Origin: an uncultured Gammaproteobacteria bacterium
GTDB taxonomy: Bacteria; Patescibacteriota; Microgenomatia; Levybacterales; UBA12049
NCBI GenBank assembly: GCA_964553245.1
Contig: CAZKJM010000001.1
Location: 81,806-145,805 of the forward strand
Direction of reading: 5' to 3'
DNA length: 64,000 bases
Shown here in pieces: positions 45,221 through 64,000 of this stretch. The number at the start of each line of letters is the position of its first letter. Positions within the stretch are counted from its first letter, which is position 1. Both the position numbers and the translations under genes were made by a program. The notes under the pieces were generated by a model. That model was not told where the DNA came from. It was given only the letters and a program-made list of their open reading frames with translations, and ran no database searches.

Positions 45221-45221
45221 A

Positions 45222-46879: not shown

Positions 46880-47637
46880 TTTAGACTATCACTCCAAATC
46901 TTATTTAAACTCTCCACATCCGGATAGGTATCCATAGAATGCCAAAACCCATCATGCAAAAAGACTGACAATTGATTTTCCTTAACCAATCTCTTTAATC
47001 CCTCGTGCTCCATTTCTCCCGGTTTAATGTAATCAAAAAAATTGCGTTTAAAAATCATAAATCCACCATTCGTTCTATCTTGTAGCACGGGTTTCTCAAT
47101 AAAACTTTCTGCCTTAAAGTTTTTGTTAATTTTTAAAAGTCCATACTTACTTCTTGGATGTACCCCCGTAACTGTTCCTATTGTTTTTTGTTTTTTATGA
47201 AACGAGATCAATTCCTTTATATTTATGTCTGAAACACCATCTCCATAGGTAACCATAAAATCCGTATCCTCTTTTGGAATATAATTTTTAACTTTTAAAA
47301 TTCTTTCTCCTGGTAAAGTTTCTTCCCCCGTATCAACAAACGTAATCTTAAAATCATCTGCTTTAATACTGCCCTTTTTATGAATTTTTGTAAAACCTGA
47401 TTTTGTATGGAGGGTAAAATTATGTTGAAGCTCTCTCTGGTTTAAGAAATATCGTTTTATATAGTCACCTTTATAACCCAAGGCTATAATAAAATCATTA
47501 AAGCCATAATGGGCATAAATTTTCATTATGTGCCATAAAATTGGTTTTCCACCAATATTTACCATTGGTTTTGGCTTAAATTCGGTTTCTTCTTTTAACC
47601 TATAACCTAATCCACCACAAAGAATTACAGTTTTCAT
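46861..47637 (-). CDS. rfbF: glucose-1-phosphate cytidylyltransferase
   Basis: MKTVILCGGLGYRLKEETEFKPKPMVNIGGKPILWHIMKIYAHYGFNDFIIALGYKG is near-collinear with RfbF/DdhA. 258 aa. Confidence 0.88.
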   Translation of the reverse strand: MKTVILCGGLGYRLKEETEFKPKPMVNIGGKPILWHIMKIYAHYGFNDFIIALGYKGDYIKRYFLNQRELQHNFTLHTKSGFTKIHKKGSIKADDFKITFVDTGEETLPGERILKVKNYIPKEDTDFMVTYGDGVSDINIKELISFHKKQKTIGTVTGVHPRSKYGLLKINKNFKAESFIEKPVLQDRTNGGFMIFKRNFFDYIKPGEMEHEGLKRLVKENQLSVFLHDGFWHSMDTYPDVESLNKIWSDSLKWKVWK

Positions 47638-48668: not shown

Positions 48669-48699
48669 TTTTTTATTTTAACATATTTATTGTTATATC

Positions 48700-49950
48700 T
48701 TGATAAACAGAAAACTAAAACCTATAATAAGATGTATGACAAAAATTAAGAAACCGCTCAGAATTACCTACGGACTTTCCGTATATGACAACAAGGAAAT
48801 ATTAAGGGTAACTAATGTTTTAAAAGAACACCGCTCCAACATGGGAATAGAAACAAAGCAATTTGAAAAAAGTGTGGCAAAATATTTTGGTAAAAGATAC
48901 GGAATTATGGTTAATTCAGGATCATCCGCAAACCTCTTAGCGCTAGAGCTTTTAAACTTGCCTGAAGGATCCGAGGTAATTACTCCTTTATTAACTTTTT
49001 CAACAACAGTAGCTCCAATCATTCAAAAAAAACTTACTCCTGTTTTTATAGACGTTGAAGAAGGAAAATATATTATCGATGTTAACAAAATCGAAAAAGC
49101 AATTACAAAAAAAACAAAATTGTTAATGATTCCCAATCTTTTCGGAAATATTCCAAATTTAGAAAAATTGGAAAAAATAGCTAAGAAACATAATTTATAT
49201 TATATTGAAGATTCTTGCGATACCTTAGGTGCAAGATTTAACAAAAAACCCAGCGGAAGTTATTCCGATATTTCAACTACAAGTTTTTTTGGCTCGCATA
49301 TTATAACAGCCGGTGGAAATGGCGGAATGATAATGGTAAACAAAGAAGAATGGAGGGATAAATTAAAGGTTCTAAGAGGATGGGGAAGAAGTTCTTCTTT
49401 ATTTAGTGAATCAGAAGACATTAAAGAAAGATTTAAGAAGAAGATAGACGGGATACCATACGATGCAAAATTTATTTTTGAAGAGATTGGATACAATTTT
49501 TTACCAGTAGAAATGTGTTCTGCTTTTGGCAATGAGCAAATTAAAAAACTTCCAATATTCAGAAAAACAAGAGAAAAAAATTTTAAAGTATTAAGAAAAT
49601 TTTTCGAAAAATATGAAAAGTATTTTATACTTCCAATTCAGGAAAAAAATGTTCAAACCCAATGGCTTGCTTTCCCACTTACTATAAAAGGGAATGCGCC
49701 ATTTACAAGACTTGAAATAACAACATTTTTAGAAAAAAACAATGTGCAAACAAGACCTATTTTTACAGGAAACATTCTAAAACAACCAGGATTTAAAAAC
49801 ATTAACAGAAAAGTATTGGATAAAAAATATTCTGTTGTTGATGAAATTATGGAAAGAGGATTTGTTGTTGGTTGTCATCATGGACTAGAAAGTAGACATA
49901 TAAAAACATTAACCTCATTGTTTGAAACTTTTTTAAACAAATTCAACTAA
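48700..49950 (+). CDS. PMP-dependent nucleotide-sugar 3-dehydrase of the DegT/DnrJ/EryC1 fold (E1/RfbH/DdhC- or ColD-like)
   Basis: GIMVNSGSSANLLALELL fold-type-I motif. At the position of the Schiff-base lysine the sequence reads SFFGSHIITAGGNGGMI, where His replaces Lys. This is the hallmark of E1 and ColD 3-dehydrases, not of aminotransferases. 416 aa. Confidence 0.65.
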   Translation: MINRKLKPIIRCMTKIKKPLRITYGLSVYDNKEILRVTNVLKEHRSNMGIETKQFEKSVAKYFGKRYGIMVNSGSSANLLALELLNLPEGSEVITPLLTFSTTVAPIIQKKLTPVFIDVEEGKYIIDVNKIEKAITKKTKLLMIPNLFGNIPNLEKLEKIAKKHNLYYIEDSCDTLGARFNKKPSGSYSDISTTSFFGSHIITAGGNGGMIMVNKEEWRDKLKVLRGWGRSSSLFSESEDIKERFKKKIDGIPYDAKFIFEEIGYNFLPVEMCSAFGNEQIKKLPIFRKTREKNFKVLRKFFEKYEKYFILPIQEKNVQTQWLAFPLTIKGNAPFTRLEITTFLEKNNVQTRPIFTGNILKQPGFKNINRKVLDKKYSVVDEIMERGFVVGCHHGLESRHIKTLTSLFETFLNKFN

Positions 49951-49957
49951 ACTTTAC

Positions 49958-51289
49958 CTATTGCTCATTATAATTTAAAATCGTCCAATTGGTTAAAAAC
50001 AAAATTAAAATAAGCATCGAAAAAGCAATTATATTAGATGTTTTTTTTGCTCTTGGAAAAAAAATAGGCAGCAAAGTTAGGCTCGTTGTAAAAATAAATA
50101 TCCTTAAGATTGAATATGAAAAACCAAACGATTGCGCAAATGATAATTGAAACATCGATAAACTAGTGACTATTAGATAAATAAAAGTTAATAAATAATC
50201 CTTTACAAAATAATCTTTTAAGAATAAAGCAATTGAAATAATTAAAAATGGATAAAATGGATATCTATACCAACCATGCCCAGGTTCATTTGGAATAGCA
50301 AAAACGAACATTAAAAAATATGCCAAGAACGGAAAAACTACAAAATAATTTTTTTTAAGATCTTTTGTAAATAAAATAAACATTGCTACCCACCCAAAAT
50401 ATATCCATCCGTCTATCAAAAATCTATCCACTAGATATGGAGATGTAAATAATGCAAACACACTATTAAAGGCCATGTCATATCTATTAAGTTGAAATTG
50501 CCAGAGGTTTATAAAAAGATCCCAATTATAATAAGCTCCATAAACTAAATATAATAACGAAATCGATATCACTATCATTAAAAATTTATATATATCTTTA
50601 TATTTCTTTAAAAAAAGAAGTATAAAAAAAGCAGCAAAGGAAGCAGCAACCCATGGAACTTTTGCCAAAATCAGTAATCCGCAAATTACCGCAGCGATGT
50701 TTCTAAAAATAGTTTTTTTAGTTTTTACAAATTTAGATATTAAAAATAACGACAAAAGAAAAAATGGAATAAAAAAATTTTCGTTTTGAACAATCCTTGA
50801 ACCAACCGCAATTGTTGGGACAATTGAATAAATAAAAGCTGAGAGTAATCCAATTTTGTATCCATAAATTTCCGAAGCAAAAAGATAGATTATAAATATC
50901 GAGAGAATACCTAAAATTAATGAAAGTCCCCTGACATGATTCACTGTCAAGTCGCTCATGTTATGTACTCCATTAAAAATTGCATATGATCCAGCAACTA
51001 ACCCAAACAATGGCGGGTGTTCAAGATATGGCGTTACTAACCTAAAGTGAACCTTGTTATAAAAAACATCCTTTGCATTTTTATATTGAGGATGAGGTGA
51101 CCATGATATTGGCGCTCCAGATTGAATAAGATTCATTCCCTGCCATGTCCATGCATATTCATCAAAAGTTGCACCGGTTCTCGGCCAAGTATATAGATCA
51201 TGACTTCTAAGTAGGTACCCAAGAACAATTACTAGGATTAGTAATAAATATTTAAACTTATATAAGTTTTTAACGTTTATAAAGTTCAT
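49958..51289 (-). CDS. PMT/ArnT-like GT-C glycosyltransferase (GT39/GT83-type)
   Basis: After TM1 the loop carries TFDEYAWTWQGMNL...YLEHPPLFGLVAG, i.e. the DE motif and the HPPLG motif diagnostic of Dol-P/Und-P-sugar-dependent PMT/ArnT enzymes. 443 aa with about 11 TM helices. Confidence 0.7.
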   Translation of the reverse strand: MNFINVKNLYKFKYLLLILVIVLGYLLRSHDLYTWPRTGATFDEYAWTWQGMNLIQSGAPISWSPHPQYKNAKDVFYNKVHFRLVTPYLEHPPLFGLVAGSYAIFNGVHNMSDLTVNHVRGLSLILGILSIFIIYLFASEIYGYKIGLLSAFIYSIVPTIAVGSRIVQNENFFIPFFLLSLFLISKFVKTKKTIFRNIAAVICGLLILAKVPWVAASFAAFFILLFLKKYKDIYKFLMIVISISLLYLVYGAYYNWDLFINLWQFQLNRYDMAFNSVFALFTSPYLVDRFLIDGWIYFGWVAMFILFTKDLKKNYFVVFPFLAYFLMFVFAIPNEPGHGWYRYPFYPFLIISIALFLKDYFVKDYLLTFIYLIVTSLSMFQLSFAQSFGFSYSILRIFIFTTSLTLLPIFFPRAKKTSNIIAFSMLILILFLTNWTILNYNEQ

Positions 51290-52398
51290 AAAGTTTTAGT
51301 TTTGTAAATTCGCGAAAGCAAAGTAAAGCTTTGATTTGTAACGTTTTCCCATTTTAAACTTTTTGACCAACTCAAAGATTCTTTTTGAAAATTTAGGTAT
51401 CTCGTTTTACTCTTTAAAAGCTTTATGGCTTCATTTGCCATTTCTCTTGGTGTATTATTTTTTAATACAATTCCTGTTTTTCCATTAATAACAGAATCCC
51501 TAAGTCCACTTACATCATAAACAATAGAAGGAGTAGATTGACTAGCAGCTTCAATCACTACCAATCCCCATCCTTCTTTAACCGATGCGTGTAGCAATAA
51601 ATGTGACTTTCTCATAAGCTCTAATTTTTTTTCTTCGGAAACTTGTCCCCAAAATTTAACTTTTGCAGGGATAGAATATCTATTCATCGTTATCTTTAAG
51701 TATTTAATATAATTTTTATCGCCATCGCCAACTATCCAAAGCTGAGCGTTTTTTACTTCTTTTATAATATAAAAAAAGGCTTTTATAACTTCTTCTATGC
51801 CTTTCATTTTTACAACTCTTGAAACAAATATGAATGTTGGCACTTTCTCTTTTGTCGACAAATTCTCTAATGTCTTATTTCTAACAGGACACGGAATTGC
51901 TGTGCATTTTTTTTCTTTTATTCCATGCTTTACTAACTCGTCTATTGTGGATTCTGCGTCTGTCCAAAAAAAATCATTTTTATATATTTTAAAGTATAAA
52001 CGTTCTAATAATTTTCCGAGCAAGTTAATTGGAAATGAATACATTGAATCCCAAATTTTACCAGCTATTTCATGAATAAACGCAACCCTTGGCTTTTTTG
52101 AATAAAGTGGAGTAAAAAAAGGCAACCCATGAATTTCGTCAATAATAAAATCAATTTTTTTTCTATTTAACAAATAAAAAAAAGGGGCTATTAAATAAAC
52201 AGAAAATGAATTACCTTTTCTTATAAATTTAATTCCATCAACGATTTCTGTTTTTTTAGATCCTTTAAATCTGGAACAAAACCATATGATATTATTCCCT
52301 TTTTTTATCCAAGATTTGGCATGCTCATTAGTAACGTATTCCGCCCCACCGCTTTTGGGATTTTTTGGATCTCTCCAATTTAAAATCAAAATATTCAT
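51286..52398 (-). CDS. glycosyltransferase family 4 (GT-B)
   Basis: EGWGLVVIEAASQSTPSIVYD. 370 aa. Confidence 0.75.
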   Translation of the reverse strand: MNILILNWRDPKNPKSGGAEYVTNEHAKSWIKKGNNIIWFCSRFKGSKKTEIVDGIKFIRKGNSFSVYLIAPFFYLLNRKKIDFIIDEIHGLPFFTPLYSKKPRVAFIHEIAGKIWDSMYSFPINLLGKLLERLYFKIYKNDFFWTDAESTIDELVKHGIKEKKCTAIPCPVRNKTLENLSTKEKVPTFIFVSRVVKMKGIEEVIKAFFYIIKEVKNAQLWIVGDGDKNYIKYLKITMNRYSIPAKVKFWGQVSEEKKLELMRKSHLLLHASVKEGWGLVVIEAASQSTPSIVYDVSGLRDSVINGKTGIVLKNNTPREMANEAIKLLKSKTRYLNFQKESLSWSKSLKWENVTNQSFTLLSRIYKTKTL

Positions 52399-53135
52399 TT
52401 CTTGTCGTAATAATGTAAAAATCGTAATCTATAAAAAACAGCAGCCGTATCCCAAAGCATCCAAAAAATTATTCTCCAAAAGTTTGAAGATGTAATACTA
52501 CTTGCTTTATTAAAATTAAGCTTTACTGGTGCTTCGTATATTTTTTTATATCCAAGTTTATTTGCAACAGTTAAGACTTCTATATCAAACGCAAAACGCT
52601 TAATAATGATTTTTGAAAAGATTTCCTTTGCTGCCTTTTTTTTAAATATTTTTAAACCTACTTGTGTATCCCTAACTTTAAACCCGAATAAGATATGAGT
52701 AAGTGTTCTGTACCCCCATGAGAGAACCTTTCTCCAAAAAGGATAATTAACCTTTGATTCAGGATGAAGCTTACTTCCAATAACGATATCTGCCTTGTTC
52801 CATTCCATAATATCAAGCATTATAGAAATCTCCGTCGGGTCTAAATCCATTCCTGCATCTATAAATCCTACAATTTCTTTACTTGCTTTTTTAATTCCAT
52901 ATTTAATCGCAAAACCTTTTCCCATGTTTTTTTGGTATCCTAGTACTTTTAAATTATCCAATTTTACCGTTCTTGCCTTTTCATAAGTATTGTCATTAAA
53001 TCCATCAACAACAAGAATAATTTCATAATTTGGGGTTAATTTTAATAATGCGCTATTTAATATTTTTATTTGTTTTACGATTGTTTTTTCTTCTTTATAG
53101 GCAGGAACTATTAAGGAGATTGATTTTTGAATCAT
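52395..53135 (-). CDS. glycosyltransferase family 2, DPM1/GtrB-like polyprenyl-phosphate sugar synthase-like
   Basis: ISLIVPAYKEEKTIVKQI...YEIILVVDGFNDNT...IDAGMDLD. 246 aa. Confidence 0.65.
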   Translation of the reverse strand: MIQKSISLIVPAYKEEKTIVKQIKILNSALLKLTPNYEIILVVDGFNDNTYEKARTVKLDNLKVLGYQKNMGKGFAIKYGIKKASKEIVGFIDAGMDLDPTEISIMLDIMEWNKADIVIGSKLHPESKVNYPFWRKVLSWGYRTLTHILFGFKVRDTQVGLKIFKKKAAKEIFSKIIIKRFAFDIEVLTVANKLGYKKIYEAPVKLNFNKASSITSSNFWRIIFWMLWDTAAVFYRLRFLHYYDKK

Positions 53136-53689
53136 AACTCATTTTTTAATGATAGGGCTTTTCTAACTAAATCCCATGAAAATGGAGTACCATCTTCTAT
53201 TCTTACATCAGCTTTTTCAAACGGCATTCTTCCTTCTTCCTCCGGGTTATATAAAGCTGTTGGAAAATTAATTAAAATAGCAGGCTCTTTTGAACTTACA
53301 AAAAATGCATGAAAAGTATTTTTGGGAATTAATAATAAATATGGATCCTCTAATGCATTAACTCTAAATAGATTAATGACATCTTTTGTTTCTGAATTTT
53401 CTCTTTTATCTGCTATTGCAATAATTACCTCACCTTGAATTACTCCCATTCTATCCTCTTGAACTGTTGGGTGAAAATGCCACACATCCTCATCTCTTGC
53501 AAGTCCTGGAGGAGTAATCGAATAATACTGCATTGAAAATTCCCTACCGGAACCATAAATATCTTCCCAATTAGTTTTTAATGTCTCAACTAACACGCCA
53601 GATTCATCTTTATTAACCTTAAGTGGATGCATTACCACGTCTTTTATTATTTTAAAATCATTTTTGTTTTTTAAATTAATAAATTCCAT
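53132..53689 (-). CDS. RmlC-like cupin: nucleotide-4-keto-6-deoxy-sugar 3,5-(or 5-)epimerase or ketoisomerase
   Basis: 185 aa. ...DESGVLVETL...WHFHPTVQEDRMGVIQGEVIIAIADKR...LLLIPKNTFHAFF matches the RmlC/AscE-like fold pattern. Confidence 0.5.
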   Translation of the reverse strand: MEFINLKNKNDFKIIKDVVMHPLKVNKDESGVLVETLKTNWEDIYGSGREFSMQYYSITPPGLARDEDVWHFHPTVQEDRMGVIQGEVIIAIADKRENSETKDVINLFRVNALEDPYLLLIPKNTFHAFFVSSKEPAILINFPTALYNPEEEGRMPFEKADVRIEDGTPFSWDLVRKALSLKNEL

Positions 53690-53725
53690 AATTAAGATAA
53701 TATCAAATTTGAATGATTATTGCTA

Positions 53726-55045
53726 TTAAATAGTTTGATTACTAGAAACGGAAAGTGATTTTTTAATAGCACTAATATCAAAATAGTTTTTTGCAAAATA
53801 AATTAATAAATATAATAAAAGCAGAGAAGAACTCATTAAAGATACGCCAATTACTTGAAAAAAACTATTATGAAATAAACAAATTCCTAATACTTGAATT
53901 AATGTCGTAATAAAAACCGGAATAAAAACCATCGTTTTACCAACAGATAAAAAGAAATTTACAAACACATTCAGGATACTAAAAACTGTTACAAATACAG
54001 CAAATATTCCTATATACGGAGCTATAGCAATATAGCTCTTTCCAAGTATAAGATTTACACTAAATTCTGAAAATATAAAATAGAATGATGTAATCGCAAC
54101 AGATGGTAATACTACTAAAAAAATTGCAAGGTAAAATAAATTCGTAATGCTTTGCCCCTTTGAGTTTCTTTTTACGATCAACGGAAACATTACATTGGGA
54201 ATCATTCCCGTAAAATAATAAATTATTCTTCCAATTAAAGATAATCCTCCATAATAACCTGCTTCTACGGGCTTAAAAAAGTGCTTTACCAAGATTACAT
54301 CCATAGATATTAAAGAGGTTAATGATAAAACAGAAATACAAGCTGGTAAGGCATAAATTATTATCTCTTTTAATTTTAGGTCTATCTTTTTGCTTCCATT
54401 TTTTCGAAAGGCAATTTTTTTAACAGGAATAAATCCCATTATAAACGACGTAACTAAAGCAAGTACAACAGCTATTAATGCTCCAAAGATTCTGTAGCCT
54501 ATTAAGACTAATATAATTCCTGAAATAAGTCTTACGAAAGCACTTATTGTAAGAACTAAGGAAGAAAAAGAAAATTTTAGCAAACTCTGAATATATGCTC
54601 CATTTACTATGGAAAGATAATTTATACAAATTGCAACTCCTATAATCGCTGTATATAATGGGTTTTCTATCCTTAAAAAACTGCTAATCGATAATGACAA
54701 TGTAAGAAATGTTACAAATATTAAAATTGATACGATAAAAAAAACTTTAAATGTTTTCTTATAGAACTCGGATGCAAAATCAAATTTTTCCCTAGAAAGG
54801 TAATCCGTTGCAAATTTAACTATTACCGTTGATATTGATTGCGCAGGAATAATGGTTAAAGTAAATAGAGATATCAAGCTTGCATATATTCCGTAATCAG
54901 ACGCTGTAAGATTTCTTGCAAAAAATAAGTTTAAGATAAAAGCAATAAATGACGAAAGTAATGACCCAATAAAAATGAATAGGCTTCCTGTAATTAATTC
55001 ATGTCTTAATATTTTTTTACCTAAATGTAATGCTTTATCTTTCAT
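53726..55045 (-). CDS. Wzx-type oligosaccharide flippase (MOP superfamily, polysaccharide biosynthesis protein)
   Basis: 439 aa with 12-14 TM helices. The N-terminus ...FIAFILNLFFARNLTASDYGIYASLISLF...IVKFATDYLSRE is typical of RfbX/Wzx. Confidence 0.7.
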   Translation of the reverse strand: MKDKALHLGKKILRHELITGSLFIFIGSLLSSFIAFILNLFFARNLTASDYGIYASLISLFTLTIIPAQSISTVIVKFATDYLSREKFDFASEFYKKTFKVFFIVSILIFVTFLTLSLSISSFLRIENPLYTAIIGVAICINYLSIVNGAYIQSLLKFSFSSLVLTISAFVRLISGIILVLIGYRIFGALIAVVLALVTSFIMGFIPVKKIAFRKNGSKKIDLKLKEIIIYALPACISVLSLTSLISMDVILVKHFFKPVEAGYYGGLSLIGRIIYYFTGMIPNVMFPLIVKRNSKGQSITNLFYLAIFLVVLPSVAITSFYFIFSEFSVNLILGKSYIAIAPYIGIFAVFVTVFSILNVFVNFFLSVGKTMVFIPVFITTLIQVLGICLFHNSFFQVIGVSLMSSSLLLLYLLIYFAKNYFDISAIKKSLSVSSNQTI

Positions 55046-56090
55046 AAACTACTTTTTTGTAAACATCTATTGTCTTGTCTGCTGTGTCTTTCCAGGAAAA
55101 ATTTTTAGAATTCTCTTTTCCTTTTCTGGAAAGCTCTTCTTGAATTTTTATATCATTAAATACTTTAATAATACCTTCTGCAATTTCGTCTTCGTCATAT
55201 GCATTTACATAATACGCAGCATTATTTGAGACTTCATCTAAAGATCCCTCTTTAGAACAAATTACAGGAAGACCAGATGCCATTGCCTCCAAGACCGGTA
55301 GACCAAAGCCTTCATAAAGAGATGGCATTGTAAAAACAGTTGCAATCTTATAAAGCTGAGTCAATTCCTCAGATGAAACAAATCCAAGACTTATTATATT
55401 TTTGTTTTCGCTTGCTAATTTCTGAACCGCAACTAAATCCTTATTCCAAGGATTTTTTTTATCATAATTTTTTGATGTTAAAGCTTGTCCAATCATAACC
55501 AATGGAACATTTGCTTTCTTAACTGCACTTAGAAGCCTAGGTAAATTTTTATTCCATGTAACATCTCCAACATATAAAACAAATTTTTCTGGTAATTTGT
55601 GTTTCTCTCTGATTTTTGTAATTAATTTTTCATTCCTTTTAGAATTAACAAACTCTTCTGCTGCTGCTAGATAGACCGTATTAACTTTTTTCTGATCAAT
55701 ATTTACATATTTTAGAATATCTTTTTTGGAAGAATTAGAATCGGTAATAATTGCATCTGTTTTTGCAAGAGATTGCTTTTGCATCTGCCACCTAAACCAT
55801 CCCTTAATTCCCTTAGGAAATTCCTTCGGAAAAACAATTGGAGTTAAATCATGAACTGTAACAATTGATTTAAATTTACTATATATGGGTTTTGCTAAAA
55901 AAAATGGCTCAAAATAAGGAAAATGTATCAAATCCACATCGTTGGGTATTTTTTCTCCTCGAGTAAAAAATGTATATGAAAATTCTGGATGATAATTTAA
56001 CAAAGACTTTTTTAAATTCTCTAAATAAAAACCTACTCCCCTTACCCTGTGTCCTGTATGAAGTGGGGATATATCTATTGCTATCTTCAT
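55035..56090 (-). CDS. glycosyltransferase family 4 (GT-B)
   Basis: EGFGLPVLEAMASGLPVICSK. 351 aa. Confidence 0.8.
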   Translation of the reverse strand: MKIAIDISPLHTGHRVRGVGFYLENLKKSLLNYHPEFSYTFFTRGEKIPNDVDLIHFPYFEPFFLAKPIYSKFKSIVTVHDLTPIVFPKEFPKGIKGWFRWQMQKQSLAKTDAIITDSNSSKKDILKYVNIDQKKVNTVYLAAAEEFVNSKRNEKLITKIREKHKLPEKFVLYVGDVTWNKNLPRLLSAVKKANVPLVMIGQALTSKNYDKKNPWNKDLVAVQKLASENKNIISLGFVSSEELTQLYKIATVFTMPSLYEGFGLPVLEAMASGLPVICSKEGSLDEVSNNAAYYVNAYDEDEIAEGIIKVFNDIKIQEELSRKGKENSKNFSWKDTADKTIDVYKKVVYER

Positions 56091-57277
56091 CTACTTTTTC
56101 CTTTATTCTTAAAATAAAAAATGTATGCTTTTTGAAAAAAGGATATTGCTAGTATATAAAAGAAAGGAATGATTGTTAAGAAATAATTAGTTGAAGAATA
56201 ACCAGTTGATAAAGTCAAAGTATAAACAATAAGCCAAATAAACAAAAACTTTTCTGGATTATTAAGCTTTAATTTTTTCATTAAAAAGTAGACGCCATAA
56301 ATAATGGTAAAAATAACTGAAACTGGCCAAGTAATCATCCATTGAGGATCCTTAATTATTGCATTATTTCCCCACCAAGTGTGCCATCTATTAAAAAGCA
56401 ATAAATCCCAAAAAGAAAACGGAAGAATGAATTTAGACTTGTGATAAGCGAGAATATATTTTTGTATTCCAAAGATTTGAATAATTGAATACCCATCCAT
56501 AATTGTTCTTGTATATGATGCAATTAAGACAAATAATGACAAAGGTAAAGTTATCATAAAAATTCCAAGCTTTTTGCTTAATCCTCTTTTTTCAATAAGT
56601 AAGTATAAAACCATGCAAAAAGTAATTACCGTTCCAGTAACAAAAAATCTTATACTAATAACGCAGCCTAAGAAAAATGAAGTTAGGATAAACCACTTTA
56701 AATATTTTTTATCATCTGCTGCTTTTATAAAAAAATAGAAGGAAAAAAGAATAAACGGGAACTGGATCGGCTCGACCAATGGGATATATTTTAATTTATT
56801 CAAAAATATTGGCTCATTAATAAATATTCCAACTGGTATTAATGAAATTAAAGAATTATTTGTTGCTTGTTTTGTTATAAGAAATATTCCAAGTGTTGAA
56901 AATGCTAAAAGTAAAACTACTATTGTACGTGGATTATCAAATAGAAAAATTGAAAGAGAAATTATGTAATTTCCAAGCGGTGGATGGTCATGAGTTATCA
57001 TTATTGGATTAAGTCCTTTTAAAAAAGCCCCACCTGCAAACGATCTAAATGTCTCATCAGTAATTATTACTGGATTTTTCTTTTGAACAAACTGTGAAGT
57101 GTAATACAGCTTTTTATAATTCTCGTATTGACTATCAAACCCTGGAGAAAAAAGATAATCAGAACTATTTGCTATAATCTCAATTGGTTTTACTAAAATT
57201 ATTAAAAGTAAAAATATAAAAATTAATTTATATCTTTTTTTTATAAATGATTCAAATACAGAAAATGCCTTTTTCAT
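56087..57277 (-). CDS. PMT/ArnT-like GT-C glycosyltransferase (GT39/GT83-type)
   Basis: Loop motif IITDETFRSFAGGAFLKGLNPIMITHDHPPLGNYI (DE and HPPLG motifs). 396 aa with about 10 TM helices. Confidence 0.65.
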   Translation of the reverse strand: MKKAFSVFESFIKKRYKLIFIFLLLIILVKPIEIIANSSDYLFSPGFDSQYENYKKLYYTSQFVQKKNPVIITDETFRSFAGGAFLKGLNPIMITHDHPPLGNYIISLSIFLFDNPRTIVVLLLAFSTLGIFLITKQATNNSLISLIPVGIFINEPIFLNKLKYIPLVEPIQFPFILFSFYFFIKAADDKKYLKWFILTSFFLGCVISIRFFVTGTVITFCMVLYLLIEKRGLSKKLGIFMITLPLSLFVLIASYTRTIMDGYSIIQIFGIQKYILAYHKSKFILPFSFWDLLLFNRWHTWWGNNAIIKDPQWMITWPVSVIFTIIYGVYFLMKKLKLNNPEKFLFIWLIVYTLTLSTGYSSTNYFLTIIPFFYILAISFFQKAYIFYFKNKGKSR

Positions 57278-57292
57278 TATTTAAGGACAGGA

Positions 57293-58270
57293 TTATAAAT
57301 CCTGTTGTTTTTTGTGCCATTGCCATGCGGTTTTAATAATTGTTTCAAGATCTGAATATTTCGGTAAAAAACCAAGTTCTTTATTAATTCTTGACGGATC
57401 AGCAACTAAAATATCTGCATCTCCTGGTCTCCTTGCTGTAATTTCAACTTTAAAATCTGTCCCTGTTACCTTTTTAACCATCTCCACAATTTCCTTGTTT
57501 GAGTATCCTTTTCCCGTTCCAACATTATAAAAATATGAACCAGGGTTTTTTATTAGTTTCTCTATTGCTAAAACATGCGCCTCTACTAGATCTAATACAT
57601 GAATGTAGTCCCTGACACATGTTCCATCCTCGGTTTTATAATCATCACCAAATAACTTAAACGGTTTGTTCTCTAAAACTGCTCTTATTATGTTTGGAAT
57701 AATATGCGTCTCTGGTTCATGCTGCTCTCCCATGGAACCGTCAATCGCTGCTCCGGCAGCATTAAAGTACCTTAAGGCAGCAAAGCTTAATCCTTTTGTT
57801 TTTGCATACCAAGAAAGTATTTTTTCAACCATTAATTTACTTTCTCCATACGGATTTTCAGGAATTTTTTGATGATCTTCTGGAATTGGGGTTTTTACTG
57901 GGTTCCCATAAACCCCAGCTGTGGATGAAAACACAATATTTTTAACCCCATGAATAACTGCTTCATCTATTAAATTTAAAGAACCAAAGGTGTTATTTTG
58001 AAAATACATGTTGGGATTTTCCATTGACTCTCCCATGGAAATGTACCCTGCAAAGTGAATAATTGCATCATACTTCTTGCTAGAAAAAACTTCTTCTAAA
58101 AACTTTTTGTCCAAGACATTGCCTCGTATAAATTCTGCTTTACTGTCTATTACCTCCTTATGTCCTCTTTCAAGACTATCTAGGACGCTAACGCTATCGC
58201 CTTTTTCGACAAGACGTTTAACCATGAAGCTTCCTATGTATCCTGCTCCCCCAGTTACTAAAATATTCAT
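57293..58270 (-). CDS. galE: UDP-glucose 4-epimerase
   Basis: MNILVTGGAGYIGSFMVKRL...FSSTAGVYG...YGESKLMVEKIL is collinear with GalE. 325 aa. Confidence 0.85.
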   Translation of the reverse strand: MNILVTGGAGYIGSFMVKRLVEKGDSVSVLDSLERGHKEVIDSKAEFIRGNVLDKKFLEEVFSSKKYDAIIHFAGYISMGESMENPNMYFQNNTFGSLNLIDEAVIHGVKNIVFSSTAGVYGNPVKTPIPEDHQKIPENPYGESKLMVEKILSWYAKTKGLSFAALRYFNAAGAAIDGSMGEQHEPETHIIPNIIRAVLENKPFKLFGDDYKTEDGTCVRDYIHVLDLVEAHVLAIEKLIKNPGSYFYNVGTGKGYSNKEIVEMVKKVTGTDFKVEITARRPGDADILVADPSRINKELGFLPKYSDLETIIKTAWQWHKKQQDL

Positions 58271-58274
58271 AAAA

Positions 58275-60572
58275 CTATTTACCTATCTTTTCCATTATAT
58301 AATTTTTTAAGGAAAAATTGGACCTTAATTCATGTTTTTTTGACCAACCTATTAACTCATCATACACATCTGCCTTATTAACTCCAATCCAAAGCTTTTC
58401 ATTTTTATCAATTTTTATTCCTCTTAAGTCATATATTGGAACATCATATATTGATGTAACCACTGGATAATCAAATCTTGAACAGCCAGTCCACCAGCAA
58501 CCTATCCCAAGAGGAATACCATCTTCATCAGTTAAGTTTCTATTATCCATTAAGATACTAATTGCCATACTTGAGCCATAAACAAGGTATTTGTAATCAT
58601 AAAGCTTAAATTTTGAATCAGGGAACTTTTTTACAATCTGATCAATTTTACTGTTTATAATTTCAACTGGACTTTTATTAACAATTGAGTTTTTAATAGT
58701 AATAAAGTTGCATCCAATAATTATTATTAATAGTATTATTGCTGTGTATTTAAACAAAACCTGTTTTATCTTCTTAAAACTAAAATCATAGATTGAATCA
58801 ATAGACCAAGCAGTAAAAATTAATATAAAAGGTAAAAAATACAGGAGGTATCCTTCTGATCTTTCCCCTTTATAAAACCTTCCAACAATAAAGAATATAA
58901 ATAAAATAATTCCCAAAGTAAATAACGGTTTTGAGATTTTATTTATTATACTTTTATAAATAAATATTAATCCTGCAAGAATAATAACCACTGAAGACAA
59001 AAACTTATATCTCCCAACTACAAAAGACCAATAATCCGGGAAGTAATGCGTTAAGTATAGCGTCCAGCTATTTGGAACATAAAGTCTATATTGTCCTATT
59101 AAAAAATAATCCATTAAATTATTTAAATTAGCGAAGTTTTGAAAATAATCCCAATAAAAAAGTGGAAATGACGGAATTAAAAAGCCTAAAACCATTAAAA
59201 AGAAGCTTAAGATTCTTTTTTTAAAATTAAGACTAGGCACAATAAGTATTGCAGGGAAAAATATTAGCAAGTTTAATGCTTGGTAATGCATGCTTAATGC
59301 AATACCTAAAGCAATTCCCATTAAGAACGCGAAAAAAGGTCTTTTTCTTTTCCAAAGTAAAATAAAAAATAATATTAACAATGCTGAAAAAGTAGAAATA
59401 TAAGTATGAGGCGTAAGCATTATCGACCTAATAACTAATTGAGGGGATGTAGCGGCCAATACCCCAAGAATTATAGCTAGTTTTTTGCCGCTAATTAGTT
59501 GCCCCAAATAGATGAAAACTCCTATTGTTAATACTCCGACTATCCCCGTAAAAAAGAAGGGAGCGCTAATTAAGAAAGGAAATAGTACATAAGAAAGCAT
59601 TATAAAGTAATAAAATACAGGACCAAATACAAAAGGACCCGCAGAACTAAATGGACCAACTAAGGGCAATTCCATTCTTCTTAACGCTTCAAGACCAATT
59701 ATCGCATCTCTTGCATTATCTCCTCCTAGTCCCCACCGATTTGGATAATTATAAAATCTTAAGACTATAGAAATTAGTAATATTGTAAATACTAAAACTT
59801 TATACCAGCCTAAATATTTAAGATATGATGCCGGAAATCTAAGAGCAGAAAACAAAGAGAAAACAAACCCTGCCCAAAGATCCATAAATCCCTTGTGGCG
59901 AATAAAGGTAAGCAAAAACCAATAGAAAGGCTTAATTAAAAGGTAGTCAAACCCAGAAATTATTTTTGAAAAGATATTTTTTTTAGATTCTTTTTGTTCT
60001 ATTTCTTTGGCAAATAACTTGTTATAAGTATTCCATTTACTCAAATAATGCTTAAAGTTTTTATATGGGTAATGCAAAAGTGCTCCTTTAAAATACCCAA
60101 CTTTTCCGCTAACTTCTGCTTGCTCATGAACATCTTTTTGAGGAAGTTTTCCTCTGCCACGTTTATAAAATCTTAAGGTGTAATCCGGATATTGTCCGCC
60201 TTTCATTAAAAATCTATGAATAAACCAATTTTTTCTCGGCATCCAATAGCCGGTAAATTCTTTTTTATCGCTTGTTAAAACGTCCACTATTTCCTCTTTT
60301 AGCTCTTTTGATAAATGCTCATCTGCATCCATTTGAAGTATCCAATCCTTAGTTGCCATATCAATTGCCATTTGTTTATTAATGTGAAAATTTGGTTTAT
60401 TGGTGGTTATCTTTATTTTCGCTTTATATTTTTTTGCTATTTCAACAGTCTTATCAGTCGATGAACCATCAACAATAATTATTTCATCAGCAATATCTTT
60501 TAAACTATTAAGACAAGCTGATAAATTTTTTTCTTCGTTATAAGTTGCTAATACAACAGATAATGTCTTCAT
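58275..60572 (-). CDS. fusion protein: N-terminal GT2 (polyprenyl-phosphate sugar synthase-like) domain plus C-terminal GT-C-like polytopic membrane domain
   Basis: Residues 1 to about 230 carry LSVVLATYNEEKNLSACLNSL...IIIVDGSSTDKT...QMDADE (GT2). The remaining roughly 530 aa have about 12 TM helices, with first loop GGDNARDAIIGLEALRRMELPLVGPFSSAGPFVFGPVFYY, which is similar to the loops of 60569..62203, 62270..63787 and the C-half of 13587..16769. Confidence 0.65.
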   Translation of the reverse strand: MKTLSVVLATYNEEKNLSACLNSLKDIADEIIIVDGSSTDKTVEIAKKYKAKIKITTNKPNFHINKQMAIDMATKDWILQMDADEHLSKELKEEIVDVLTSDKKEFTGYWMPRKNWFIHRFLMKGGQYPDYTLRFYKRGRGKLPQKDVHEQAEVSGKVGYFKGALLHYPYKNFKHYLSKWNTYNKLFAKEIEQKESKKNIFSKIISGFDYLLIKPFYWFLLTFIRHKGFMDLWAGFVFSLFSALRFPASYLKYLGWYKVLVFTILLISIVLRFYNYPNRWGLGGDNARDAIIGLEALRRMELPLVGPFSSAGPFVFGPVFYYFIMLSYVLFPFLISAPFFFTGIVGVLTIGVFIYLGQLISGKKLAIILGVLAATSPQLVIRSIMLTPHTYISTFSALLILFFILLWKRKRPFFAFLMGIALGIALSMHYQALNLLIFFPAILIVPSLNFKKRILSFFLMVLGFLIPSFPLFYWDYFQNFANLNNLMDYFLIGQYRLYVPNSWTLYLTHYFPDYWSFVVGRYKFLSSVVIILAGLIFIYKSIINKISKPLFTLGIILFIFFIVGRFYKGERSEGYLLYFLPFILIFTAWSIDSIYDFSFKKIKQVLFKYTAIILLIIIIGCNFITIKNSIVNKSPVEIINSKIDQIVKKFPDSKFKLYDYKYLVYGSSMAISILMDNRNLTDEDGIPLGIGCWWTGCSRFDYPVVTSIYDVPIYDLRGIKIDKNEKLWIGVNKADVYDELIGWSKKHELRSNFSLKNYIMEKIGK

Positions 60573-62203
60573 CTTTTTATAATTTTATAACTAATAAGAG
60601 AAACAATAAATAATAAACTTATTAAAGAGATTATATCTGAATATGTTCTAACTTTTGTATTTTCAAACACAGCTTCAATTTTATGATTTCTTCCAGTTAC
60701 ATAAAAAGTCATTAGGCCTCTATATTTTGGATCCTGAAACTGAGTTGGTTCTTTTTTGCCGTCAACATAGATTGTCCAATTTGGAAAATATAAAGTATTT
60801 ACTAAAAGTCTTGCGCTATTTATCCCCTCAAATTCATATACTCTATAATTTGTTTTATGAATAACTTCTTTTACTTCTCCCCTTCCTTCAATAACTTGTA
60901 TCGGGGTTGCTGGTTTTTTTTCCATAAACCTAACAGACCAAATTGGTGAACTTTCCCCAGTATCAGTAGTGCTTTCAAAAACTCCAGTATAAAAAGATTC
61001 AGGTTTTATTAAATAACCCTTAGGCTTCATATAGCTTATGCTTAAAAGAAATAATACCGCTATAAGACCAAAAATTACTTTTTTTCTTACTCTTTCTTTT
61101 AAGATAGATACTGTTAATGCTCCAAGAAGTGACATTGAAAAAACAGGAATCGCTAAAAGCCTCCAAGGAAATTGAAAATTTTGCAAAATCATTATTTTTT
61201 CCCATATAAAATTAGACTCAATAAGCATTAAAAATATTCCGACAATGGTGTATATTATTCCAGCTAAAACGAGCCAAAAATTGTTTTTTTTCTTTAGCTT
61301 AAAGTAAAAAAGAGCAATAAATGAAACCAAAAATGATATCCAATGGATTGGACCAAGCTGTACTGTAAATTCACCTGATTGACCATAATTCCAAGGTCCA
61401 TAAATTAATGAATTAAAATCAACAAATCTTCTAATGTATGTCCCTGAAGTTAAAATATTTCTTAATGTATATTTACCTTCAAGCAATGCTGGCAACCAGA
61501 AAAATGCTGATAATAAAAATCCAAGCATAATTGAAGTAAGCGAATAAATTAAATATGATTTTTTAAATTTTAATCTAGACCATAAAAATACTGTATAAAA
61601 AAATAAAAAAGGTAAGAAAATAAGACTTAATGCGTTATGAGCTAAAATTAAAAAAGCCAAAGAAATCGACAGAAGCGAAAAATTAAAAACATTTTGTTTT
61701 TTATACAATTTATATAAAAACAAAAGAATTAATGGTAAAAAGATAAATGCAAAATTTTCTCCAATTGCACCTCTTACGTAAAGGTCAACAAATCTATAGG
61801 GTGCATACACATAAAGAACTCCTCCAAAAATTGCTTCTTCCCTTCTTAGAAACTGAGATAACCATAGATACATAAAATACCCAGATAAAGCGAAACCTAA
61901 AGCAAATACGAGTTTCGTTGAATCTATAAAATTAAATCCTATTAAATGAAAAAGCGAAGCGGTGTACGAAGGTAATGGATATAAAAACATTGGAATTGGA
62001 TGACCATATCCCCAATTAAGATTTCCCGCCCAACGAGGAATAATAATCCCCTCGGATAAACTCTGGTAAAAATTAGCAATTCTTGCAACATGATCTCTAC
62101 CATCATGAGTAAAAGGAAGTCCTTGATTTAATAGTGATATAAGCGGGACTATTAAAACTAAAATAAATACTAAATTTAATATCCAATTTTTAAATCTCTT
62201 CAC
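60569..62203 (-). CDS. GT-C-like polytopic membrane protein with C-terminal soluble domain
   Basis: 544 aa. First loop LPFTHDGRDHVARIANFYQSLSEGIIIPRWAGNLNWGYGHPIPMFLYPL is a paralog pattern shared with the neighbouring genes. The start overlaps the stop of the fusion gene by 4 nt. Confidence 0.5.
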   Translation of the reverse strand: MKRFKNWILNLVFILVLIVPLISLLNQGLPFTHDGRDHVARIANFYQSLSEGIIIPRWAGNLNWGYGHPIPMFLYPLPSYTASLFHLIGFNFIDSTKLVFALGFALSGYFMYLWLSQFLRREEAIFGGVLYVYAPYRFVDLYVRGAIGENFAFIFLPLILLFLYKLYKKQNVFNFSLLSISLAFLILAHNALSLIFLPFLFFYTVFLWSRLKFKKSYLIYSLTSIMLGFLLSAFFWLPALLEGKYTLRNILTSGTYIRRFVDFNSLIYGPWNYGQSGEFTVQLGPIHWISFLVSFIALFYFKLKKKNNFWLVLAGIIYTIVGIFLMLIESNFIWEKIMILQNFQFPWRLLAIPVFSMSLLGALTVSILKERVRKKVIFGLIAVLFLLSISYMKPKGYLIKPESFYTGVFESTTDTGESSPIWSVRFMEKKPATPIQVIEGRGEVKEVIHKTNYRVYEFEGINSARLLVNTLYFPNWTIYVDGKKEPTQFQDPKYRGLMTFYVTGRNHKIEAVFENTKVRTYSDIISLISLLFIVSLISYKIIKR

Positions 62204-62253
62204 TTGAATAAATCCTTAAGCTAATCTTAACATATTTAAAGCTGGTTTTTAAA

Positions 62254-62262
62254 TGATATAAT
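62254..62262 (+). promoter_or_regulatory. perfect extended -10 element TGATATAAT upstream of 62270..63787
   Basis: Read directly. It ends 7 nt before the GTG start at 62270, so the transcript would be leaderless or nearly so. The divergent 66-bp intergenic region is shared with 60569..62203. Confidence 0.45.
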
Positions 62263-62269
62263 CAAAAAG

Positions 62270-63787
62270 GTGTTTAAAAAAATTACTAAAAAGCTTTGGT
62301 TACTTGCAATTATTATCCCTTCTGTCTTTTATTTCTGGTATGTTTTTAATGGAGAAGCAATTCTTTCTTCAGATATAGCCAGAGACTTCTTGCTTTATTC
62401 AGAGATTACGCAGAAAAAAATTATCTTAATTGGACCAAAATCTAGCGTTATGGGAATCTTTCATGGTCCTTTATGGTTATATCTAAATTATCCAGCGTAC
62501 GCATTGGGTGGAGGAAATCCAGTTGTTATTGAAGCATTCTGGATATTCCTTACTTTTCTTTTTATATATTCATGTTATTTTGTTGGAAAAAATCTTTTTG
62601 ATAAAAATACAGGTTATTTATTCTCGGCAATGGTAGCGCTATATATGTTTTTTCATATAAATCAATTTTACAATCCTATGGGGGCAATGTTTTTAATACC
62701 AATAAATTTTTATTTTTTTATAAAATACCTACAGACTTATAAGAAAAAATTTATCATTGCATACTTTTTGCTTTTAGGACTTATTATCCAATTTGAACTT
62801 GCGATTGGAATTCCGTTTCTAATCCTTTCTATTCTTTATTTATTCATAAAGCTAATAAGATCAAAATATAGAAAACACCTTTTAGCAATTTTTCTAGTAA
62901 TGATTCCTCTATTAAACTATGTTGTTTTTGATATAAGGCACGAGTTTCTTTTAACAAACTCTATTCTTCGTTATCTTTCCCCTGAGAGCGGAGATTCAAT
63001 TAAATACAACTATCTATATATGCTTTATGACCGCCTTAAGTTAATGATTACAAATGTAGAAATACTAAGATCTGACCCAGGAAATAGAAATTTATTAACG
63101 GGACTTATTTTTATTTTCTTTTTAGTTTTGCAATTTAGAAATAAAAAATATAAACAAATTTACTTTCTGTTTTTGTACTTTTATGTCGGTTTTTATGCTT
63201 TAACATTTATAAATAAAGGGCCAGTTTTATATTTTTATATGTTCCCGCTTTTTCCTTTTGTGTTCTTAATTTTTTCATCTTTTATCACATCTAAATATAA
63301 AAGGGTGTTTTTAGCTATTTTTATTATCGTTTACTGCATAAATCTAACTACCTTATTTAAGGATATTAAGATTTTTACAAATACATACTTAGGCAAATCT
63401 GAAACTTCGTGGAAATTTTTATCCACAATGGCAAATAGTCTCTATCAGGGGCCTGAGGAAGGATTTGGGTATTTTGTCTATACTCCTGACATCATTGCGT
63501 ATGGACCAAAATATGCATTATTTTACGAAGAAAAAAGGCATAAAAACAAAAAACCAGTATACTTTGAAAAGAAAAAAATAACCTATATCGTAGTTGCGCC
63601 TCCCGCCAAGGATAATCCGTATCTTTCTTATGAATGGTGGAAAGAACAAAGATTAAATATAAAAAAAGACCCCATAAAAACAATAACTTTTTCAAATGGA
63701 TACAGGATTGAAAAATATGAATTGAATAACCGAGAAGTAAGTGAATCTTTTGATAAAGGAATAGATCCTGGACTTTCTTTTAGATAA
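62270..63787 (+). CDS. GT-C-like polytopic membrane protein (paralog of the domain in 58275..60572)
   Basis: 505 aa, GTG start, about 12 TM helices. First loop SSDIARDFLLYSEI...GIFHGPLWLYL. Confidence 0.5.
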   Translation: MFKKITKKLWLLAIIIPSVFYFWYVFNGEAILSSDIARDFLLYSEITQKKIILIGPKSSVMGIFHGPLWLYLNYPAYALGGGNPVVIEAFWIFLTFLFIYSCYFVGKNLFDKNTGYLFSAMVALYMFFHINQFYNPMGAMFLIPINFYFFIKYLQTYKKKFIIAYFLLLGLIIQFELAIGIPFLILSILYLFIKLIRSKYRKHLLAIFLVMIPLLNYVVFDIRHEFLLTNSILRYLSPESGDSIKYNYLYMLYDRLKLMITNVEILRSDPGNRNLLTGLIFIFFLVLQFRNKKYKQIYFLFLYFYVGFYALTFINKGPVLYFYMFPLFPFVFLIFSSFITSKYKRVFLAIFIIVYCINLTTLFKDIKIFTNTYLGKSETSWKFLSTMANSLYQGPEEGFGYFVYTPDIIAYGPKYALFYEEKRHKNKKPVYFEKKKITYIVVAPPAKDNPYLSYEWWKEQRLNIKKDPIKTITFSNGYRIEKYELNNREVSESFDKGIDPGLSFR

Positions 63788-63830
63788 AATAATAAAATTA
63801 TAGATTTTTTTGCGATACTTTTAAAATTAT

Positions 63831-64000
63831 TTATTTCTTTAAAAATGCCAAGAGTAAAAGACCAATAAAGCCAAGACAACTTATAAAAACGGCTAAGTAA
63901 AAATATGAGGGAAGATAATTAAATTCAATTGTTGATTCACCTTTTGGAACAATGATTGCCCTAAAATTATAATTAGCTTTATAAATTTTAACATCTTTTC
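63831..64000 (-). CDS. partial gene (C-terminal 56 aa; continues past window end): C-terminal soluble domain plus terminal TM anchor, like the C-termini of 22112..24154 and 24471..27893
   Basis: Reverse-complement frame gives ...KDVKIYKANYNFRAIIVPKGESTIEFNYLPSYFYLAVFISCLGFIGLLLLAFLKK* with a TAA stop at 63833-63831. It is not the 63628..63879 ORF in the supplied track. Confidence 0.4.
   Translation of the reverse strand, partial: KDVKIYKANYNFRAIIVPKGESTIEFNYLPSYFYLAVFISCLGFIGLLLLAFLKK

Follow-up and report, generated by a model that had tools for sequence, protein, structure and literature searches.

The stretch of DNA analysed here, called the window below, comprises 64,000 nucleotides (nt) of contig CAZKJM010000001.1 (GenBank assembly GCA_964553245.1, positions 81,806 to 145,805 of the forward strand). 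It is titled as an uncultured Gammaproteobacteria bacterium and is placed by GTDB in Patescibacteriota, Microgenomatia, Levybacterales, UBA12049. The G+C content of the whole window is approximately 29%. At positions 58275..60572, on the minus strand, a single unbroken reading frame with an ATG start encodes a protein of 765 amino acids (aa) in which a GT2 glycosyltransferase domain is joined to a membrane domain of the GT-C type (Table 1). The start of this fused gene shares 4 nt with the end of its upstream neighbour (60569..62203), and a gap of 5 nt separates its stop from the gene that follows, a spacing that places the fused gene within an operon.

Both halves of the protein are recognised by Pfam. 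Glycos_transf_2 (PF00535, GT2) matches aa 5-123 with 82.4 bits against a cut-off of 23.3, passing the gathering score; PMT_2 (PF13231, a GT-C family) matches aa 318-474 with a marginal 27.6 bits against a cut-off of 26.1, or 28.6 bits when the C-terminal part is run alone. The fused protein is a member of both the GT2 and the GT-C superfamily. In a hydropathy scan, the N-terminal 252 residues (42 of them Lys or Arg) are without a transmembrane (TM) segment and are followed by approximately 11 hydrophobic segments and, after the last of these, by a 141-residue C-terminal tail. An AlphaFold2 (AF2) model made from an alignment of 119 sequences (pLDDT 92.9, pTM 0.87) consists of an alpha/beta part (aa 1-170), three helices (173-195, 200-225, and 228-254), a membrane bundle (256-631), and a second alpha/beta part (650-765). 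The linker between the two enzymes is essentially zero residues long, as RFPASYLKYLG at the end of the GT2 module is followed directly by WYKVLVFTILL.

This DNA had been the subject of an earlier note, made by a model from the letters and open reading frames (ORFs) alone, which proposed a single polypeptide made of a GT2 and a GT-C-like domain of roughly 12 TM helices. The single polypeptide is borne out by the one ORF, by the Pfam matches on both halves, and by an architecture that is conserved in relatives; the TM count was close to the approximately 11 helices found here, which are followed by a soluble domain of approximately 130 aa.

Occurrence and origin of the fusion

The identical 765-aa protein occurs on three contigs and is present in four sources: NCBI, JGI, ENA, and the Logan assembly of a Sequence Read Archive (SRA) run. 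A search of 5.8 billion proteins gave approximately 55 matches longer than 700 aa, of which 53 are distinct homologues that share the GT2 plus GT-C architecture and are 42-75% identical. When one genome per GTDB species was scanned, single-ORF fusions with 54-57% identity were found in six genomes (loci L004-L009), and the species genomes that bear the fusion are, where named, Candidatus Levybacteria or Levyibacteriota. The recurrence in related genomes by which the earlier note proposed to recognise a true fusion is found in the 53 homologues as well as in these six species representatives. Many loci of Levybacteria/Patescibacteria type (L006, L008, L009, L014-L016, L019, and others) are titled 'uncultured Gammaproteobacteria', 'Pseudomonadales' or 'Bacteriovorax'; such titles of metagenome-assembled genomes are probably placeholder or erroneous taxonomy labels from bulk submissions.

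An assembly or sequencing artefact would have separate GT2 and GT-C genes read as one through a frameshift or a lost stop codon. The fused gene is A/T-rich with homopolymer runs, and split versions of the gene pair do occur: in the related genomes of L012, L017, L021, and L026, the same two genes are separate and overlap by 4-17 nt. Against such an artefact stand the identical records, the 53 fused homologues, and the junction itself. Homopolymers are absent from aa 250-257, where the halves meet; the only long run near the middle of the gene (A8) lies at aa 197, inside the GT2 domain. The transition from helix to TM1 is continuous in the AF2 model (pLDDT approximately 95). Stand-alone GT2 orthologues terminate exactly at fused residue ~253. 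The split GT-C genes start with a cytoplasmic leader of 15-25 residues that the fused forms are without, and its absence reflects a real deletion rather than a 1-nt slip. On the evidence of the repeat records, homologues, junction sequence, and leader deletion, a frameshift or assembly artefact is ruled out, and we put its probability at virtually nil. Neither of the two findings that the earlier note had named as fatal to its proposal was made: the domain boundary does not coincide with an error-prone homopolymer, and the C-terminal domain does have GT-C homology, in its PMT_2 match. Because coupled orthologues exist in split form, the GT2 ends exactly at the junction, and the leader is missing from fused forms, we regard the fusion as a genuine evolutionary event: two translationally coupled genes became one when the stop codon and the short cytoplasmic leader that had lain between them were lost.

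The two halves of the protein

The GT2 half had been described in the earlier note as a classic polyprenyl-phosphate sugar synthase-type GT2, partly on its 'DADE' motif. In a single-sequence search against solved structures, this domain matches GmaR (2.3e-14, aa 5-192) and SunS (4.8e-13) far better than DPMS (3.5e-4) and GtrB (0.011). A profile of 17 orthologues matches GmaR at 4.9e-29 (positions 4-195) and SunS at 1.5e-19 (3-152); DPMS (2e-8) and GtrB (1.3e-5) align only over positions 3-88 and 3-95, respectively. The similarity to the latter two is thus confined to the nucleotide-binding half, which is common to all GT2 enzymes. Foldseek searches with the GT2 domain agree, returning SunS (1e-8) and ThuS (2.7e-7) versus DPMS and GtrB at approximately 1e-4. 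The motif D-x-(E/Q)-x-G-(Y/F/L)-K, which we take to be the acceptor-loop motif of DPM1, GtrB, and ArnC, is present in every DPM1-type protein of the data set (RDTQVGLK in the 52395 ORF, D[VM]ETGYK or DMETCYK in L016, L041, and L044, and DMETGYK in protein P0169), whereas the fused GT2 lacks it and reads KDVHEQ in the equivalent place. Assignment to the DPM1/GtrB/ArnC type is ruled out at the level of both sequence profile and fold, and by the missing acceptor-loop motif: 'DADE' is no DPM1/GtrB signature, and the domain is SunS/GmaR-like.

The residues that are invariant in the orthologue alignment are D35, D82-x-D84-E85, R113, N115, P129, R134, H149-E150, and H167. They include the DxD metal/nucleotide-sugar motif, which is present together with the GT-A fold, and an HE pair (H149-E150) that aligns with 'IHEQ' of GmaR; significant similarity to the SunS/GmaR-like subfamily extends over both catalytic halves, HE motif included. 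SunS and GmaR are soluble enzymes with peptide or flagellin acceptors that continue into helical or tetratricopeptide repeat (TPR) regions; their acceptors are hydroxyl or thiol groups rather than polyprenyl phosphate, and we know of no member of this GT2 subfamily that acts on polyprenyl phosphate. The window's domain departs from them in two respects. The invariant R113, N115, and P129 have no counterpart in GmaR, and no TPR or helical C-terminal substrate region of the SunS/GmaR type is found (there is no TPR in Pfam), its place being taken by membrane-associated helices and the GT-C. To judge from its sequence, the fused GT2 resembles the SunS/GmaR catalytic core yet is not an orthologue of either. 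The helices at aa 200-225 and 228-254 are joined by a conserved turn, RHKGF-D-W-G, with R225, G228, G235, and Y250 conserved. Both fall below the TM hydropathy threshold, and they are presumed to form a membrane-interface anchor on the cytoplasmic face.

In the GT-C half, PMT_2 is matched by 52 of the 53 members of the GT-C alignment (best E 5e-13). Sequence comparison of this part with the PDB gave one chance match for the single sequence and none at E up to 10 for the 53-sequence profile, and the GT-C assignment comes from Pfam and the fold search alone, the latter finding the GT-C fold. Across 119 sequences, D285 is invariant and R288, D289, and residues 306-317 (GPFSSAGPFVFGP) are at least 90% conserved, making the first extracytoplasmic loop (aa 272-338) the candidate catalytic loop. 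W728, Y737, and W743 of the C-terminal domain are conserved in the same set. Hydropathy, the positive-inside charge pattern, and the AF2 helices together predict that the GT2 lies inside, that TM1 (256-273) leads out, and that the loop at 272-338 is outside. This topology places the basic clusters KRKR 408-411, KKR 451-453, and KK-K 600-603 on the inside, and H429-Y430, W474-D475…N482…R496-x-Y-V-P-N-S-W503, and G569-E570-R571 on the outside; with eleven TM helices, the C-terminal domain would therefore be outside as well, as in ArnT, PglB, and AglB. The predicted arrangement combines an inside N-terminus with an acidic residue that is conserved in the first loop outside the membrane, in line with the cytoplasmic GT2 and outward loop that the earlier note had anticipated.

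The same note had matched this loop to stand-alone paralogues at 60569 and 62270, which holds for the second gene and fails for the first. The 62270..63787 protein aligns with the fused GT-C in hhalign (probability 93.8%, E 1.7e-7, 217 columns) over the loop and the following helices, and BLASTP with the loop gives E 0.005. For 60569..62203, the hhalign probability is 14.5% and the aligned region excludes the loop; the candidate is rejected as a loop paralogue, its ORF being a PTPS_related (PF10131) protein. The 62270..63787 protein, whose gene is transcribed divergently from the operon, has no Pfam or NCBIfam match and shares the first-loop motif D-x-A-R-D … GP-x-S-x-x-G-x-F-x-GP. Proteins of its type are frequent in these clusters and make up a GT-C-like family without annotation.

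The glycan gene cluster and related loci

Table 1. Position, strand, and basis of assignment of the features discussed (window coordinates unless a locus is named)
Feature	Position	Strand	Basis or remark
Whole fused gene, 765 aa, SunS/GmaR-type GT2 + GT-C	58275..60572	-	ORF call, Pfam PF00535 + PF13231, AF2
GT2 (GT-A fold) catalytic domain, aa 1-195	59988..60572	-	Invariant residues from orthologue alignment
Two long hydrophobic/amphipathic helices closing the GT2 module, aa 200-225 + 228-254	59811..59975	-	DSSP of model, hydropathy
GT-C membrane domain, aa 255-632, ~11 TM helices, N-terminus predicted inside	58677..59810	-	
First extracytoplasmic loop (predicted), aa 272-338, GGD285-NA-R288-D289 … GPFSSAGPFVFGP	59559..59759	-	119-sequence conservation; motif also in 62270 ORF
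C-terminal soluble alpha/beta domain, aa 633-765 + stop codon	58275..58676	-	Secondary structure, pLDDT, no TM segment
Distant GT-C paralogue, 505-aa membrane protein without Pfam match	62270..63787	+	hhalign, BLASTP
PTPS_related (PF10131) polytopic membrane protein, 544 aa, same operon, upstream	60569..62203	-	Pfam
GalE-like NAD-dependent sugar epimerase	57293..58270	-	PF01370 8e-58
Second GT-C (PMT_2), 396 aa	56087..57277	-	PF13231 2.3e-9
GT4 Leloir glycosyltransferase	55035..56090	-	PF00534
MOP-family (Wzx-like) polysaccharide flippase	53726..55045	-	PF13440 + PF01943; conserved in cluster
DPM1-type GT2	52395..53135	-	Top PDB match DPMS 5mlz 1.3e-15, aa 5-208, then GtrB, ArnC
Further GT-C (PMT_2), 443 aa	49958..51289	-	PF13231 2.9e-12
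Second polyprenyl-phosphate-type GT2, ArnC-like	45222..45926	-	ArnC 9bhc 1.9e-9, aa 4-208, then DPMS, GtrB
P0106, GT2 + 62270-like GT-C	L048:3033-5348		GT-C 35% identical over 501 aa
P0096, GT2 + third GT-C type	L050:31-2400		
P0054, GT2 + divergent main-type GT-C	L051:2180-4465		Only 29% identical in GT-C

The fused gene lies in a region (39411..64000) with approximately 24 kb of glycan synthesis, a large investment for a small genome of the Candidate Phyla Radiation (CPR). The region encodes four membrane proteins whose GT-C nature is supported by Pfam or by fold (the fused gene and those at 56087, 49958, and 62270), the PF10131 protein, four GT2s of three subtypes, two GT4s, the MOP flippase, a cupin, and a set of sugar-nucleotide enzymes (a DegT aminotransferase, three epimerase/dehydratases, and a nucleotidyltransferase). 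The DPM1-type GT2 at 52395..53135 is likely the polyprenyl-phosphate hexose synthase of the cluster. A polyprenyl-phosphate sugar synthase and GT-C proteins are encoded together within 45-64 kb, as expected of a three-component system. Among the genes of at least 185 aa that fully tile 39.4-64 kb, there is no GtrA match, and the only flippase-like gene is the MOP-type 53726..55045. Two further ORFs, 43478..45220 (plus strand, 580 aa) and 40240..42324 (minus strand, 694 aa), have no Pfam match and no significant hhalign match to the GT-C profile. Elsewhere in the window, two very large ORFs (13587..16769, 1060 aa, and 24471..27893, 1140 aa, both on the minus strand) lie in a long run of genes on the same strand, and a tRNA scan of the window found no genes.

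Related Levybacteria loci share a core gene order: the 62270-like gene, the PF10131 gene, GT2 and GT-C, the epimerase, PMT_2, GT4, the flippase, the cupin, and the DPM1-type GT2. The PF10131 gene precedes the GT2 or fused gene in L004, L005, L006, L008, L009, L012, L017, L021, L028, L038, and L051. The epimerase is directly downstream of the fused or split GT-C, or of the paralogue that substitutes for it, in L004, L005, L006, L008, L009, and L012, and likewise in L017, L021, L038, L048, and L050; it is separated by one gene or a short gap in L007, L026, L028, and L031. A DPM1-type gene follows downstream in L004, L005, L007, L008, L009, L017, L026, L028, L034, and L038, and is found in all ten of the loci whose core operon includes a SunS-type GT2, fused or split, and whose sequence reaches far enough downstream. 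The split GT2 of L026 is surrounded by three tandem GT-C paralogues (6512-7999, 8759-10336, and 10333-11901, within L026:6512-11901), which amounts to a local expansion of the family.

Other combinations of these domains were found when 1.84 billion representatives were searched exhaustively (719 matches at E ≤1e-30), a set in which the window-type fusion is a single 50% cluster. P0169 (L052:3665-5860) and P0263, both metagenome proteins, carry a DPMS/GtrB-like GT2 (DPMS 5mlz, 1e-14 over aa 11-250) fused to a GT-C of the window's family, with 30% identity over 490 aa. These proteins, which belong to other organisms, are on sequence grounds the architecture that the earlier note had envisaged, a donor synthase fused to its consumer. 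P0169 sits behind two more PMT_2 genes and a 116-aa ORF. In addition, a separate DPM1-type GT2 gene of 234-250 aa lies directly upstream of the GT-C orthologue, overlapping it or at most 2 nt away, in L015/L003, L016, L041, and L044. Because of this adjacency and fusion, the DPM1-type enzyme would be the natural supplier of polyprenyl-phosphate sugar to the GT-C family, and the use of a polyprenyl-phosphate-linked donor by the GT-C thereby gains indirect support.

A SunS-type GT2 that is 67-72% identical to that of the window is fused to differing GT-C paralogues in P0106, P0096, and P0054, and the gene neighbourhood is conserved, being the same in each of the three loci. The pattern implies at least three to four putative independent fusions or domain swaps. 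In P0214 (L053:505-2310 and L054:787-2592), a SunS-type GT2 (45% identical) is instead fused to a GT4 that is the orthologue of 55035..56090 (34% over 305 aa, 3e-51), which links the SunS-type GT2 to cytoplasmic Leloir glycan assembly; P0176 is grouped with P0214 as a GT2::GT4 fusion. P0161 (796 aa) contains a DPM1-type GT2 domain ('DADLSHPPE') followed by two tandem SunS/LgtF-type GT2 domains, indicating that a single protein can hold both GT2 types and that neither stands in for the other. Tandem pairs of the SunS/LgtF-type domain are present in many representatives (e.g. P0167, P0168, P0194, P0207, P0210, P0235, and P0243).

Proposed function and comparison with known systems

The fused protein is best explained as a two-sided, bifunctional membrane glycosyltransferase of a cell-surface glycan pathway in Levybacteria-like CPR/Patescibacteria. 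We consider it moderately probable that the fused GT2 is a cytoplasmic Leloir enzyme whose acceptor is lipid-linked, and that its partner, the outward-facing GT-C, is served by separately encoded synthases. The GT2 domain would be held at the inner membrane face and would use a nucleotide sugar, probably a UDP-hexose, a donor that is proposed because a GalE-like epimerase is nearly always adjacent. Its acceptor would be membrane-anchored, most likely a polyprenyl-diphosphate-linked oligosaccharide built with the GT4s of the cluster; a lipid-anchored acceptor is also suggested by the membrane-associated helices at the end of the GT2. The MOP flippase would then flip the glycosylated intermediate outward, where the GT-C would add a sugar from the polyprenyl-phosphate sugar made by the synthases at 52395..53135 and 45222..45926 or, alternatively, would transfer the flipped glycan itself. 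The fusion would fix the cytoplasmic and the extracytoplasmic step of one pathway in 1:1 co-localisation; the SunS-type GT2, GT4, DPM1-type GT2, and GT-C do appear, from their adjacency and fusions, to belong to one pathway.

Several observations weigh against this proposal. The donors and acceptors of both domains are assigned by inference, no initiating phosphoglycosyltransferase is found among the 20 proteins scanned in 39.4-64 kb, and L010, L011, L019, L023, and L027 have no DPM1-type GT2 within approximately 8 kb. This GT2 is also found repeatedly with one or another GT-C paralogue as its neighbour or fusion partner (the main type, the 62270-like one of P0106, and those of P0096 and P0054), a pattern typical of a donor synthase with its GT-C and less expected of a glycan-building GT2. 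This pairing favours the model of the earlier note, in which the fused GT2, although not of the DPM1 type, makes a polyprenyl-phosphate sugar that is flipped and then consumed by the fused GT-C. Genomic coupling of the two enzymes is strong: they are fused in L004-L009, they overlap in L012, L013, L017, L021, and L026, and they lie one gene apart in L001, L010, and L028. In addition, independent fusions have joined this GT2 to three or more other GT-C paralogues. The GT2 also takes the position held by a DPM1-type GT2 in L015, L016, L041, and L044, which could be a non-orthologous displacement; it ends in membrane-associated helices, like GtrB and DPMS; and several loci that carry it show no DPM1-type gene within 8 kb. 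No similarity to DPMS, GtrB or ArnC is detectable in its acceptor half, however, which matches GmaR and SunS; the DPM1-type loop motif is missing, and the HE motif of hydroxyl/thiol-acceptor enzymes is kept. Moreover, there are two bona fide polyprenyl-phosphate-type GT2 genes in the same cluster, P0161 joins DPM1-type and SunS-type domains in one chain, and P0214 joins a SunS-type GT2 to a GT4. With the GT2 grouping with SunS and GmaR and with separate synthases in the cluster, the claim that one protein both makes and consumes the lipid-linked donor is not upheld, and we judge this model unlikely. That the SunS/LgtF-like GT2 represents an unrecognised, non-DPM1 class of polyprenyl-phosphate glycosyltransferase, with the fusion a self-contained unit for making and using the donor, is in our estimation quite unlikely; if true, such a unit might, as a single protein, hand the lipid intermediate over from one side of the membrane to the other, with no dedicated flippase.

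The kinship to SunS, ThuS, and GmaR also raises the idea of a two-sided protein-glycosylation enzyme, whose GT2 would modify, on the cytoplasmic side of the membrane, a protein that is perhaps destined for the membrane or for secretion and not yet exported, and whose PMT-like GT-C would O-glycosylate proteins outside. We hold this to be very unlikely. Both here and in the stand-alone orthologues, membrane-associated C-terminal helices replace the TPR-type substrate-binding regions of SunS and GmaR; R113, N115, and P129 are invariant here and missing in GmaR, and P0214 combines the GT2 with a GT4 in one chain. The surrounding genes form a neighbourhood of the polysaccharide type, with a MOP flippase, sugar-nucleotide enzymes, and GT4s, in which no gene for a candidate substrate peptide was noted.

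The protein is best classed as an uncharacterised domain architecture assembled from two well-known families, and would work like an ArnT/PMT/ALG-like GT-C combined with a membrane-associated Leloir GT2. Natural gene fusions are strong evidence of functional coupling, and this one ties a SunS/GmaR-like cytoplasmic Leloir GT2 to an extracytoplasmic GT-C in Levybacteria, CPR bacteria whose envelope biochemistry is essentially uncharted; the related fusions (GT2::GT-C paralogues, GT2::GT4, DPM1-type::GT-C, and DPM1-type::GT2) interlink four enzyme types. It is a useful clue to functional coupling, and no surprising mechanism is demonstrated by it. With their near-zero linker, the fused forms are convenient single-chain structural targets for the coupling of inner and outer glycosylation. 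A more general lesson is that a GT2 beside a GT-C is not by itself a donor synthase, and that the GT2 subtype needs checking. Neither such a GT2::GT-C fusion nor GT-C clusters of the CPR are described in the full-text literature searched (a collection that is not exhaustive), and the public names of the protein and its relatives are generic 'glycosyltransferase' labels only.

Among known systems, GtrB+GtrC, ArnC+ArnT, and CsbB+YfhO likewise have a cytoplasm-facing GT2 encoded with an outward-facing GT-C. The window resembles these three-component pairs in that its cluster also has DPM1/ArnC-type GT2 genes, and the resemblance extends to the orthologues in L015, L016, L041, and L044, where the GT-C is directly behind a DPM1-type GT2. 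It differs from these pairs in that the fused GT2 is not of the GtrB/ArnC/DPM1 type, that both enzymes are one polypeptide, and that the flippase is MOP-type, with no GtrA-type flippase in 39.4-64 kb. The SunS/ThuS S-glycosyltransferases and the Listeria O-GlcNAc transferase GmaR are the best matches to the GT2 in sequence and fold, across both GT-A halves and with the DxD(E) and HE motifs; these enzymes are soluble and act on peptide or flagellin acceptors, whereas the window's domain ends in membrane-associated helices and the GT-C. A mode of action like the one proposed here is that of LgtF and WaaE, the beta-1,4-glucosyltransferases of the lipopolysaccharide (LPS) core (CDD cd02511), whose substrate is a glycan held by a lipid anchor on the inner face of the membrane. 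The resemblance to them is putative, and we treat it as a lead only; the pattern that may be shared with them is DADE … R-x-N … PD … R … VHE … H-Y, with a C-terminal amphipathic helix pair of the form G-x-x-G … Y … K-Y. To our knowledge, Patescibacteria do not make LPS, and the acceptor would differ from that of LgtF and WaaE.

For the GT-C half, the 53-sequence profile has no sequence-level match to any solved GT-C, including ArnT, PMT1/2/4, ALG9/ALG12, and AglB/STT3/PglB, and the loop motif GGD-x-x-RD…GPFSSAGPF is specific to the window's GT-C family. In Campylobacter, PglI is a GT2 that completes a lipid-linked oligosaccharide and PglB a GT-C that transfers the oligosaccharide; these are separate proteins, whereas the fused gene encodes one chain, for which en bloc transfer is a possibility only. 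The closest counterparts in architecture are P0169 and P0263, which have the same GT-C family in the same GT2 to GT-C order: their GT2 is DPMS/GtrB-like, and that of the window is of the other type.

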